Source of the DNA: Ruditapes philippinarum
Taxonomy: Eukaryota
Length of the DNA stretch: 64,000 nt
Assembly: GCF_026571515.1 (NCBI RefSeq)
Contig: NW_026855093.1
Coordinates: forward strand, 62,001-126,000
Direction: 5' to 3'
Positions 25,496 to 33,493 of this stretch are shown piece by piece. The translations under genes and the position numbers were made by a program. The notes below the pieces were generated by a model. That model was given only the letters and a program-made list of their open reading frames with translations. It was not told the DNA's origin and searched no databases. Each line of letters begins with the position of its first letter. The stretch's first letter is position 1.

Positions 25496-28400
25496 ATGAA
25501 GATATTAGGTTTGAAGATTACTTTTAAGGATTTCCATATAATATTTACAAACCATTGGTACGTAAGAATGTTTAAATTTATATCGCAACGCGTTTGTCAC
25601 ATCGATTTCCACTGGATAACCGTGAACTGTATGTTATTCAAATACACAGCCGATGTACATTTGAAAAGTGTCTGTCAGTTTGTCTGTCTGTCTGTCTAAT
25701 GATATAAGGTCGCTTTGAGACGAAACATAAGCTGATACATTTTGTACCGAATGCTCAACAAGTTTATTTGTGTTTCTTTTCAATAAATTGTACATGTTAA
25801 GTTATGACATTCTATACTTACATAACCATCATGAATATTAATTTTATAAAACTTACACATTGTTCATAACTTAATAGATTTTTTGTAAATCCAATTACAA
25901 AGGTAGTATTTTAGATGTTAATTTTGATTCTATAATTATGAAACATTTTAAAATCTCTCTTAAAGTTAAATAAAATGCATACTAATATATTTTATTTTCA
26001 TTTTCCTCATAGGTGTCTCCCTACGTTTCTTACTTTTAATAAAAACTGTCGGTACGTATTCTCTTTCTCTAATCACATACATTTATATCAAATTTGTAGG
26101 TCACCAGGACTCATTTTGTATCTCTAGTTTATTTTGTAAGCAACAGAAAAGGAACGCCATAAACATATAACTGATTAATGGATACATCTAATGATGTTTT
26201 TGTTGTAAGGGGCTAAACAACTTTGCACATCAATAACATCTTGTTTTATTCTAGTATTCTTGATAATAGTATCAGGTATTAAAAAGTAAACGTGTCGCTG
26301 ATTCATTTTATGACCATCACAAAATGATGTTATGCTGCTTATTTACATAACAATCTGATTGTTTTCGATTATGTTTAATTACAATTGATTATAATTATTC
26401 TTACATATAGTCGACCTCTATTATAAAATTCCTGGATAAAACACTCAGTTGCAAAGGAAGTTCGTACTAGATTATTTATATATTCTCTTTTCTTACCGAA
26501 GCATAATAGTGGCCAGCTTTGTATAAAATATTGCCGGAAAGTGATGGCAATAAAATGCTTTACTTGGTGAAATTTGATAATCTCTTGAATTTATTCAATC
26601 TACTTTGAAACATTATTTCAAAAGGCAAACAAACACATTAATAAAAATGCACTTATGCAATTTCTATTGCTCACTATTCTGCTGTTTAAACATTACAAAA
26701 AGTCTGATTATTTTACAAGTTTCATTGTCAACCATTGTAAATTCAATACATTTTTGCAAATTTTGAAATCAAATATGCGAATATCATCTGTAAAAAATAT
26801 ATCGAATCTTCGTGCAGCCAACAGCACATTTTTCTTTTGCATCTTGTAGTGCATTCTTTAAGAGTTGTTATTTTTTAGACATTCATTCTCTTTAAACACT
26901 TTTTATCAGATGCTTTCCAATGTTTCTCTTGTAATCAAATTGATGACCCGTTGCTATGTAACAAGACAGTCACTTGCTCCGGAACACAAGAGGTATTGTG
27001 CATTATGTTAATTCATGATAAGATTTATCATATAATCGGCTTTTTTGAACACTTTTTTCTTTTCAAATATGAATACATTTGATCAATTTCACTTAAAACA
27101 ATGTGCAACAAAATACTTTGGATAAAAGTGAGTAAATGTCAGACACGGTAAAAGAATAGGACATATTTAAAAATTGTGGTCTATATTTTATGTAAATTTC
27201 TAAACAAAAGGTTTCTGTACTATACATTTTGACATATTTCTATATGTATTTCATACTGGACAAGACTACAGCACATTCAATCGTTTATACACATTTAAAA
27301 TTATACTTGTATGAGAAGTTTGATAATTGTAAACTTCATTTCTGTCCTTATCATCAAAAACGAAGTGATGTTTAAGGTATAATATAAAATTTAATGTCCT
27401 ATGTTCCGTTTTACAGTTTTGCTACATGCATGTACAAGAGGGAATCTATGATATGGGATGCTCTGATAATAAGGTTAATCTTTATTGTTTCAATAATCAA
27501 TTAAACGAGCAGGAATCATGCCTGTAAATTTACTTTTATAACAATTCTTATGTAACACCATAATAGATATCGTTAAGTAGCAATTTAATGTATTTTTTCA
27601 ATTGAATGTACATTCTTTCCAGCTTTATAGATAATCTGGCATTCTTGTTATGGACAATCAATGAAATATATCAAGTTAGCTAAATAAGATTTACAGCGTA
27701 GAAACAGTCCGAGTGAGTCTTGGCCAACAATTTTTCATGGAAAGTGAAAAAAGAACACTTAAGAAAAAAATAAAACAACAACAACAATAAATCAACAACA
27801 AAAAACAACAACGACAAACAAGAACTTCAAACAAATTAACACAAACAGTAAATATGAACAAGAAAATCTACATGAAATTTCTAACAATCTAACAATGCCT
27901 CGAACGCATTAATTTGCCCTAAGTTATTAATATTTAAACTACCTAGAATAATTTAGGAGTAAATGAGAGGCATGTCCCATTGAACCCCTAACCAAGAATG
28001 CGGCTTACACATATATTTAACGCAGTAGCCAGCCGAACGGCAAACAGCAAACTAAAAAAATATGACGCTAATAGTGCATATTATCAATGAGACAACTGCT
28101 AGGCATTTATACTCCGGTTGATTGGGATCAGTGGAGAGAACTAGAATATTGCGTTTTCTTAAGTCTATACAGAATACTCGCCCCTGGGGAGAATACTGGG
28201 ACAATATATTGAATGAAAATACAAATAAATTTAAATATTATAAAAATGAAATAATTGTTATGGATTTATATTTAAAACATAAAAAAGATTCATCTCGAAC
28301 ATTTTTAACGGGTTCTATAAGTTGGTGTCCGTTAGTCGTGTTTTGCTTACCATTGATTATCGAATGCAGCGCAACTGTTTTGATAATATATTCATATAAG

Positions 28401-31400: not shown

Positions 31401-33493
31401 CAGTATGAAGATGATATCATTCATTTTAAATTGTGAACAAATATATCAAAAAGTTTTGTTAAATATCTTATTACATATTCAGTTGATGGCATATGGGCAG
31501 AATGGTCAAATTGGGGTACATGCTCGCTTAAAAGTGATGTGTGTACGCAATCGAGATTTCGAACATGCACCAATCCTGCTCCTGCTTTTGGAGGACTTGG
31601 TTGTGAAGGAAGGAATACTGAAACCAGAAAATGCTCAACCCACTTTTGTCCTGGTAATACTTTTTTCTTAGAATATACTTTTCAATATACTCTATTGCAT
31701 GTTTGTCTAAAATGTTTTTCTTCTCCTTTCGGTATGCATAATACATAATATATCAGTGGGCTGTTTATATTTTGTCCAGAATAATATAAAAAGTAAAATT
31801 ATTATTATTGAAAATTGTTAATTATGAGACATTTGGAACAGTATACCTTGAAATATTCGCAATGTAAGAAACATTCAAATAACCCATCTTGATGAAAACA
31901 TAATGAATCATGCAATATACATATGTGTTCAAATTAATTGTTGAGTGTCAGTTGAAAGTATATGCATGAATCAATGAGATAATTCAGTTAAATAAACTAA
32001 TTGAATTATCTTATTCTAGAAATTATAAATATTATACTTGTTTAAATCATAATATTAGTCCCTATATATGCATGTATTGTTGTTTTTACTTCTTTTTCAG
32101 GCCACATTTGAAATATATATCTATATGACTGCTCTTGTATATTCATAATGTGTTACCTTATCTAAGTAAAGATACGTTTGTCATTGTAATAATTATCTTT
32201 TAATTATTCAAATTGATATTTAATATACAGGAGTATGTGCTGGAAAAGAGTACTTGAATTCAAGTTTATCAAACGTTGCTAAAGGTAAAAGCGTCACATT
32301 GAGTTCATTATTCGACTCAATTTCTCCGAGATCACTTATGGTAGGTATTTCATAAATCTATGCACTTAGAACTTATTTGCATTTAATTGATTTATTTACT
32401 AGTAAATAATTAATAATTTAAATTAGATTATTAAAGTATTTTATAGTAAGTTGATAAAAAATCAAGGTATTGATTAACATGTTATCATTTATTAACGTAT
32501 ATTATGTTAATATGTAAATCATCCAATTTATGAATACGATAATAAATTAATTTGTTTTGTATTTTGTTTATTTATAAATGTATCCGTTAATTGATTTATC
32601 TTACTAAATTAATTTATTGTCTTTTTTAATTTAAGTTTAATTGATACAATATTTCAAGTTTTAGTTCAAATTTAAACTCATGTACTCATGCGCGTTATAG
32701 GAAAATGCCACCCAAACTTAACTTGGTGATTCACTAGTATTAATCATATTTCGTCTTAGAAAATCACACAATCATACTTTATAAGTAATACTAAATAGGG
32801 TTACACAAAAACACTTGGAATTTATTTGTTACTTTTTTATGGCAATGTTCTGTTAAAGATAATAAATATATCGACTACTGGACCATATGTTCTGTTCCTC
32901 TTACTTTACATTTCATCAGTACTGCTTTATTATACTTATCATAATTTATTACTTTAACAGGTGGATGGAAATCGTGACAGCTCCTGGCCATGTGCTTGCA
33001 CTTTAAACAGTGATCATCCGTACGCCATTGTCGATTTGCAGCATCCGTTTAACATACTTTCCATGTACATTGTAAACAGAGGAGACTGTTGTCGTAAATA
33101 ACACGAATACATTTTATCATCTGCTAAATTTGGATACAAATTAACTGTCTTTCTAGATCCAAAAGTACTTAATTTATGTTGATCTTTAATGTACCTTAAA
33201 TAAGCAATCGGAAAAGTTACAGTATTTTCAAAAGTTATCTTTGGAGACGGAATATTTGTTTTTCTTTTGGCTCTAATAAACATATATTGCTTTCAGCTGA
33301 ACGGCTCAATAATTTGGCTGTGTTCGTTGGAAACTCAACATCAAGTTTGAGCCTTGCTGCACAACACCCAGGTCCTATTGGTGCAGACTGTATCTTAGTA
33401 TTCGATTCAGCAGTGCACGGACGATATGTAAAACTACAAATACAAGGCGTGTCGTATCTAACAATTTGTGAACTCGAAATATATGCTGAATAA
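25496..33493 (+). CDS. Secreted mosaic protein, 365 aa: signal peptide - Ly6/uPAR (three-finger) - ShKT - thrombospondin type 1 - F-type (fucolectin) lectin domain
   Basis: Exons 25496-25508, 26013-26051, 26910-26992, 27417-27473, 29393-29564, 30289-30411, 31483-31653, 32231-32340, 32961-33093, 33297-33493. All GT-AG, phases consistent, 1098 nt open. Motifs: MKILGVSLRFLLLIKTVDA|FQCFSC...CCSMDNCN; CVDD...CPKFCNLC; WAEWSNWGTCS...RFRTCTNPAP; NVAKGK...VDGN...NRGDCCPER...GRYV...LTICELEIY. The two 5' micro-exons are the least certain. Confidence 0.88.
28470..28640. mobile_element. Crypton-like palindromic element end in intron 4 of the mosaic gene
   Basis: Nested inverted repeats: aaacagtgattttat...ataaaatcactgttt and ttatatcacgagggc atagccc gagtgatataa. 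Confidence 0.55.
30692..31065. mobile_element. Family X repeat, near full-length copy (reverse orientation)
   Basis: Matches 51528-51860 directly, and 3935-4215 and 63100-63375 as reverse complement. Confidence 0.8.

Follow-up and report, generated by a model that had tools for sequence, protein, structure and literature searches.

A clam gene joining three-finger, ShKT-like, TSP1 and F-type lectin domains as a candidate stalk-and-head recognition protein

Introduction

A 64,000-nucleotide stretch of the Ruditapes philippinarum assembly GCF_026571515.1 (contig NW_026855093.1, positions 62,001 to 126,000, forward strand), hereafter the window, harbors the ten-exon gene LOC132742079 between its positions 25496 and 33493. 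The encoded protein of 365 amino acids (aa) comprises, in this order, a three-finger domain of the Ly6/uPAR type (LU), a ShKT-like domain, a TSP1 repeat and an F-type lectin domain. The question raised by this locus is what such a mosaic may do, and whether it stands alone. On balance, we consider it probable that LOC132742079 encodes a secreted stalk-and-head recognition protein, being one F-lectin-headed member of a large clam family. C1q, F-lectin, SRCR and fibrinogen domains are recognition domains of invertebrate immunity. This role is documented for C1q in the available portions of PMC8905726 and PMC6835236.

A Family of Stalk-and-Head Proteins in Clams

The LU, ShK and TSP1 domains were found together in 33 of the 171 proteins fetched (isoforms included), and their heads consisted of C1q in 14, F-lectin (with or without sushi repeats) in eight, SRCR in four and fibrinogen in two, while five had none. 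The named stalk proteins came from Ruditapes, Mercenaria, Mactra, Dreissena and Mya; three others were Logan proteins, of which two were complete on short contigs. No cassette protein from oysters, mussels or scallops occurred among the matches listed, in which TSP1 repeats were crowding. The ShK exon presented at least 145 matches in the Ruditapes assembly, among 150 scored of 166 candidates, a figure that includes haplotig duplicates (e.g., L023/L025, with an identical loop). In 20 matches hand-picked across the ranking, LU was found upstream in every case and TSP1 downstream within 5 kb in 18, and a C1q or a fibrinogen exon followed downstream in seven and three, respectively. The 64-kb window itself held no paralogue of LOC132742079.

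The module borders in LOC132742079 are of phase 1, and phase-1 donors were observed in the paralogues for 17 of 20 ShK and 40 of 42 TSP1 exons, with phase-1 acceptors for 15 of 20 and 21 of 42, most of the other acceptors not having been called. A stalk-only tree of 28 rows, unrooted, with unsettled bootstrap, and from which isoforms, near-copies and the fused record P0028 were excluded, displayed nine head changes against a minimum of four. The grouping of the C1q-headed rows in a single clade was rejected (p-AU 3e-10), which fits the replacement of heads. Read most simply, the ancestor would have been C1q-headed and its head swapped later, an order drawn from an unrooted tree, and the heads would have been replaced by exon shuffling.

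Two members departed from the common layout. At the locus L034 (G000:C12330), a different sub-type, LU exons were followed by several ShK-like units, finger III carried a Gly-Lys-Arg, and TSP1 was missing within 5 kb. The Mercenaria record P0028, of 1425 aa, carried three complete stalk-plus-C1q units and may represent tandem genes fused by annotation.

The identity of these proteins as a single family is hidden by automatic names that scatter it among coadhesin-like, hemicentin-like, SCO-spondin-like, semaphorin-5A-like, thrombospondin-like and fucolectin-like entries. The initial annotation knew of no characterised protein with this architecture, and in fact no description of the family was found in the mostly open-access literature covered; however, the architecture is not a one-off, but represents one of the head types within a large and apparently undescribed family of clams. 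It is not described in the available portions of PMC8905726, PMC6835236, PMC5712786, PMC7148315, PMC11312191, PMC9781830 and PMC12236594.

A different explanation would be that the family comprises mucus, adhesion or matrix proteins without immune function, involved with gill/palp particle sorting, byssus or shell matrix, in which the TSP1 repeats bind the matrix and the heads act as glycan anchors. Most members consist mainly of TSP1 repeats, ShKT and TSP1 terms co-occur in the available text of a paper on limpet adhesive mucus (PMC7333891), and expression looked patchy, with contig depths of 38-46 in the sequencing runs X13/X14 versus near zero in X21/X23. However, the same slot holds four unrelated recognition domains, and more than 100 exon matches together with high amino-acid polymorphism are typical of immune receptors, so that we regard this explanation as rather unlikely.

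Gene Structure and Transcripts

The ten exons, translated one by one from the window, summed 1098 nt, corresponding to 365 codons and a stop. All nine introns were of the GT-AG type, phases were compatible, and no internal stop was found. The elements of the gene are as follows.

25496..25508, + strand: coding part of exon 1, with the ATG; donor GTTTGA, phase 1, as in RefSeq isoform X1; donor absent from the listed contig joints
25509..25557, + strand: alternative extension of exon 1 to the donor at 25557 (GTACGT), from one X14 contig with a short side of 29 letters
26013..26051, + strand: exon 2, remainder of the signal peptide predicted by eye, phase 1-1; aligns with orthologue leaders
26910..26992, + strand: exon 3, start of the three-finger (LU) domain, Cys22-Cys40; from Pfam, translation and contig joints
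27417..27473, + strand: exon 4, middle of LU, Cys47 and Cys60; from translation and contig joints
29393..29564, + strand: exon 5, LU finger III with its insert, ending in C-x2-CC-x4-CN-x3-C; extra Cys pair 103/117
29420..29497, + strand: finger-III spacer, lying between Ile-Val-Gly-Arg77 and Arg98-Arg99; family conservation, with predicted convertase/amidation sites and putative processing
30289..30411, + strand: exon 6, ShKT-like six-Cys domain, phase 1-1; acidic, without a Lys-aromatic pair
31483..31653, + strand: exon 7, TSP1 repeat, phase 1-1; second Cys at 183, family position 180
32231..32340, + strand: exon 8, linker and start of the F-type lectin; from translation and contig joints
32961..33093, + strand: exon 9, F-type lectin with VDGN, Cys269 (32997-32999) at the position of the triad His, and Arg296-x-Asp298
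33297..33493, + strand: exon 10, C-terminal half of the F-type lectin, Arg303 and stop; poly(A) starts near 33510

The ten-exon chain proposed by the initial annotation was confirmed, since the same 365-aa protein is RefSeq XP_060586355.1 of R. philippinarum, isoform X1 of LOC132742079, retrieved in a search with exon 10. The gene had been presented as hidden, but it is already annotated in RefSeq, with an uncharacterised function. Isoform X2, of 317 aa, starts at Met49 and has no leader.

Splicing was evaluated from transcript contigs and read depth in seven of 24 listed sequencing runs, of which X13 is on record as RNA and X14 is RNA by guess, X14 and X20 having no RNA record. Junctions 2-9 were present at the predicted sites. 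Junctions 5, 6 and 9 occurred in all four runs of the contig comparison and junction 7 in three; junction 8 also occurred in three, the fourth run placing the same 620-nt intron with a shift of 3 bases. Junctions 2-4 were restricted to runs X14 and X20. The domains had been expected to be linked in one transcript, and contig 3 of X13 (813 nt), running from exon 5 to exon 10, indeed joined the LU end, ShK, TSP1 and the lectin; contig 6 of X14 (964 nt) was listed from exon 5 on, with joints 1-4 at matching depth. A poly(A) was observed at 33510 in run X5. A 21-nt micro-exon near 26255-26275 was dropped, as contigs splice 26051 straight to 26910. Run X1, contiguous through the unspliced intron 9 and corresponding to DNA or pre-mRNA, was not used as support, and the same holds for X21 and X23, whose coverage of the exons was scant.

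Of the nine spliced junctions expected, only junction 1 was not confirmed, in that 25508 to 26013 was not among the joints listed in the transcript contigs. The sole form of this junction among them joins 25557 to 26013 and comes from a single X14 contig, whose short side of 29 letters is below the threshold of 31. The donor at 25557 puts the ATG at 25496 out of frame, with a stop in exon 3, and this splice probably corresponds to isoform X2. The 25508 donor is backed by isoform X1 and by the leader of the Mercenaria orthologue, both leaders having 19 aa and aligning without gaps.

The Stalk Domains

The LU region presented 12 Cys at 22-117, comprising the ten canonical ones and the pair 103/117, with a framework ending in CC-x4-CN. 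C66, C103, C106, C107, C112, N113 and C117 were invariant across 38 family rows. The LU Pfam clan score was 16.1 bits for the LOC132742079 protein, below the cutoff of 21.2, which was reached by the family members P0157 (21.2 bits) and P0159 (21.5 bits); PF00087 was matched at E 0.05 by six of the 38 members. The Atlas model of the protein matched LU (Ly6/uPAR) clusters at TM 0.40-0.55, the lead having scored under 0.9, and an Atlas feature search with P0011 gave no match. Two AlphaFold models (pTM 0.32 and 0.33) displayed the strands of fingers I-II, with low confidence at 64-123/130. They were also poor at 215-272, which is explained by the misalignment of rows with multiple TSP repeats to the beginning of the lectin. 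Lectin and TSP1 matches took up the fold searches, which barely sampled LU and ShK, and PDB sequence searches with the ShK exon and with a LU-only Dreissena protein returned no relevant match.

The ShK-like domain has its six Cys at 125-160, is predicted by AlphaFold to contain two helices, and matched PF01549 over its full length at 17.6 bits, below the cutoff of 20.9. The TSP1 exon scored 22.5 bits against PF00090, above the cutoff of 21.6. This repeat keeps WxxWxxW, RxR and six Cys, with the second Cys displaced by three residues relative to the family; a search for homologues using only the TSP1 exon gave no matches. The domain order initially proposed holds, and the F-type lectin and TSP1 calls are solid, but those of ShK and LU stay under the Pfam cutoffs in this protein.

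In finger III, a spacer that varies is flanked by conserved Arg sites, the loop (from Cys7 to the extra Cys) having 13-36 residues among stalk-bearing proteins, and 36 in LOC132742079, with Gly-Arg77 and Arg98-Arg99. Two aliphatic residues followed by [G/A/K]-Arg were observed in 24 of 30 protein loops. Of these 24 motif loops, 21 also had a second Arg placed 2-6 residues ahead of the next Cys, and Gln came after this Arg in 13. Shuffling gave a mean of 11.9 for this second Arg and never a value as high as 21 in 2000 trials, a contrast inflated by shared descent, which the test disregards. Among 20 genomic loops, 13 carried the first motif, one carried Gly-Lys-Arg and six neither. Typical signals for convertases, amidation and pyroglutamate formation include Gly-Arg, Gly-Lys-Arg and Arg-Gln. 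The Arg sites of finger III resemble convertase/amidation signals, and cleavage at them is predicted; alternatively, the motif may be an exposed binding motif. Cleavage at both sites would excise a 22-residue spacer, leaving a two-chain protein held by disulfides. If true, such processing within a finger would set this domain apart from what is usual for the three-finger fold. A tentative possibility for the whole family is an undescribed set of soluble receptors in heterodont clams, with more than a hundred exon copies, in which a constant LU/ShKT/TSP1 handle carrying shuffled C1q, fibrinogen, SRCR or F-lectin heads would undergo an insulin-like maturation; the excision of the finger-III spacer by convertases and the amidation of the first chain would activate an effector or cell-binding site common to the family.

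It was also proposed that LU and ShK act as two toxin-like effectors, that is, that a lectin guides a toxin against parasites or predators, whose receptors or K+ channels it would block. Both folds occur in toxins, weak Pfam matches to Toxin_TOLIP and ShK were obtained, and the release of a processed N-terminal unit is conceivable. However, the hallmark of ShK toxins is a basic surface with a Lys-aromatic (Lys-Tyr) dyad, and the ShK-like domain of LOC132742079 has a net charge of -2 and lacks any Lys-aromatic pair in the stretch from Cys3 to Cys4. By the same dyad criterion, this pair was found in none of the 38 family ShK-like domains, whose charge had a median of -2 (range -4 to 0). Moreover, LU belongs to the constant stalk and carries a long insert, a constant stalk with variable heads is the opposite of toxin diversification, and the predicted cut in finger III would free neither domain, because disulfides of the canonical LU pattern span it. 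Channel or receptor block by this product is unsupported by these data, and the toxin explanation is the least probable of those considered.

The F-Type Lectin Head

The C-terminal domain was recognized as an F-type lectin from its sequence (PDB 3cqo, E 9.5e-30) and its fold (VIA, Z 12.7, rmsd 2.1 over 105 residues). The cation motif h2DGx is present as MVDGN at 256-260. In the available portions of PMC5712786, the fucose motif of F-type lectins is given as His-Xn-Arg-X-Asp-X4-Arg/Lys. This motif is incomplete in LOC132742079, in which Arg296, Asp298 and Arg303 are kept and Cys269 occupies the His position. The glycan-recognition head initially proposed stands as to its fold, but without the His of the fucose triad. 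Judged from these residues, the head is a non-canonical F-type domain. Among 182 fetched F-lectin domains, this position was His in 105 and Cys in nine; the Cys also occurs in the Mercenaria orthologue, and the paralogue P0005 retains His. XP_053386572.1 is a natural paralogue that bears His. Since the head carries seven Cys, one of them is likely unpaired, probably Cys269. The His-to-Cys change was also observed outside the stalk family, in P0102 and in all four F-lectin domains of P0101, and may be a recurring variant of the fucose site.

The Mercenaria orthologue is full length, with 69% identity. A second assembled copy, probably a haplotig, lies on contig C8205 and is 90.8% identical over 3951 nt. 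Across exons 6-10, 14 non-synonymous and 11 synonymous differences separate it from LOC132742079 (pN/pS 0.35; Fisher p 0.011). This 15-kb contig (G000:C8205, L011) is apparently annotated separately, its exons 6-10 copy appearing as fucolectin-1-like (P0003).

These data bear on two further explanations. First, LOC132742079 could be decaying or silenced by splicing, its main mRNA using the donor at 25557 and encoding no leader, half a LU domain and a dead lectin site. The 25557 joint is the sole one listed at junction 1, RefSeq X2 starts at Met49, the TSP1 Cys is shifted relative to the family and the triad His is lost. However, every exon is open, pN/pS is 0.35, the leader can be aligned with that of the orthologue, the His-to-Cys change is common to Mercenaria and hence old and retained, and rarer splice forms drop out of contigs; we find decay improbable. 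Second, the product could be a gamete-recognition protein, comparable to the F-lectin bindin of oysters or the three-finger protein Bouncer of fish. According to the available text of PMC5712786, the bindins of oysters are F-lectins that show polymorphism and in some cases lack the triad, and fertilisation in fish is regulated by three-finger proteins, according to that of PMC13719153. However, most family members have C1q, SRCR or fibrinogen heads, and a protein for species recognition would be expected to share less than 69% identity with Mercenaria, which leaves this explanation even more improbable than decay.

Proposed Role

In the stalk-and-head reading that we favour, the protein would be secreted via the isoform X1 leader, the F-type lectin head would bind a surface, and the LU/ShKT/TSP1 stalk would engage host cells or partner proteins, so that the protein would tag microbes or glycans in haemolymph or mucus, much as an opsonin or agglutinin does. 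The ligand of this head would be other than plain fucose. The initial annotation suggested a modular immune effector; a secreted protein with a likely immune role can be retained from it, but not the two toxin-like folds as effectors.

Several observations weigh against this reading. The sole 5′ splice listed in the contigs (25557, in one contig) removes the leader frame, RefSeq X2 also being without leader, and two raw-read runs (X21, X23) displayed little or no depth on the exons. Residues 64-123/130 had pLDDT <50 in both AlphaFold models, and the third finger was unconfirmed there. The incomplete fucose triad may mean that sugar binding is lost, not merely changed. At the family level, a single origin of the F-lectin heads was not rejected (p-AU 0.18), and the Arg motif is missing from six of 30 protein loops and six of 20 genomic loops; to these add the haplotig duplicates among the ShK matches and the shared descent behind the shuffle contrast.

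If these are recognition proteins, they would be a large further class in the immune repertoire of both the zebra mussel and farmed clams. To our knowledge, bivalves mostly lack collagen-tailed C1q, and the stalk would be one answer to how they couple recognition heads to an effector.

Comparison with Known Systems

Ficolins, collectins, C1q and FREPs are soluble stalk-and-head pattern-recognition proteins. Like these, and like the bivalve coiled-coil C1qDC proteins and snail FREPs, the clam proteins join a constant N-terminal part to a C-terminal recognition domain; in contrast to the ficolin, collectin and FREP types, their stalk is made of LU, ShKT and TSP1 and bears at least four unrelated heads, and no collagen or Ig domains were found in them by Pfam. 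Large tandem expansions are reported for bivalves in the available portions of PMC6835236 and PMC8905726.

A close likeness in architecture is with mollusc proteins in which LU is joined to a C1q or fibrinogen head, fusions reported as previously undescribed by Paramonov et al. (2026; PMC13719153, available in part). TSP1, ShKT and F-lectin domains are absent from the main text and Fig. 2 legend of that paper, which also make no mention of a family, of its expansion or of an insert in finger III, and its LU-C1q and LU-fibrinogen examples may or may not belong to the clam stalk family.

F-type lectins such as eel AAA (PDB 1k12) and striped bass FBP32 (PDB 3cqo) share with the head its fold, sequence, cation motif and Arg-x-Asp-x4-Arg, whereas LOC132742079 has Cys269 for the triad His and its lectin domain terminates a LU-ShK-TSP1 stalk. 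TSP1 repeats are shared with the properdin/thrombospondin-1 TSR proteins, and properdin was the top PDB match of the family profile (E 2e-52); however, this likeness comes from the repeats only, and LOC132742079 has a single one. The cysteine frameworks also resemble those of snake three-finger toxins and the sea-anemone ShK toxin, with sub-cutoff Pfam matches, but LOC132742079 encodes a 365-aa mosaic with a 36-residue finger III, an extra Cys pair and an acidic ShK-like domain without the Lys-Tyr dyad.

Repeats and Other Features of the Window

Two introns of the gene contain repeated sequences. In intron 4, a high-copy element at 28468-28620, with 75-nt inverted arms that are 72% complementary and heavy coverage in all runs, looks like a MITE. 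In intron 6, a very high-copy repeat with depth in the thousands spans about 30700-31050; the stretch of C8205 matching it also hits the window near 51528-51848, 63102-63372, 3962-4212 and 15779-15920. Open frames of at least 130 codons are limited to two in the window, at 52271-52783 and 56093-56593, both on the + strand.

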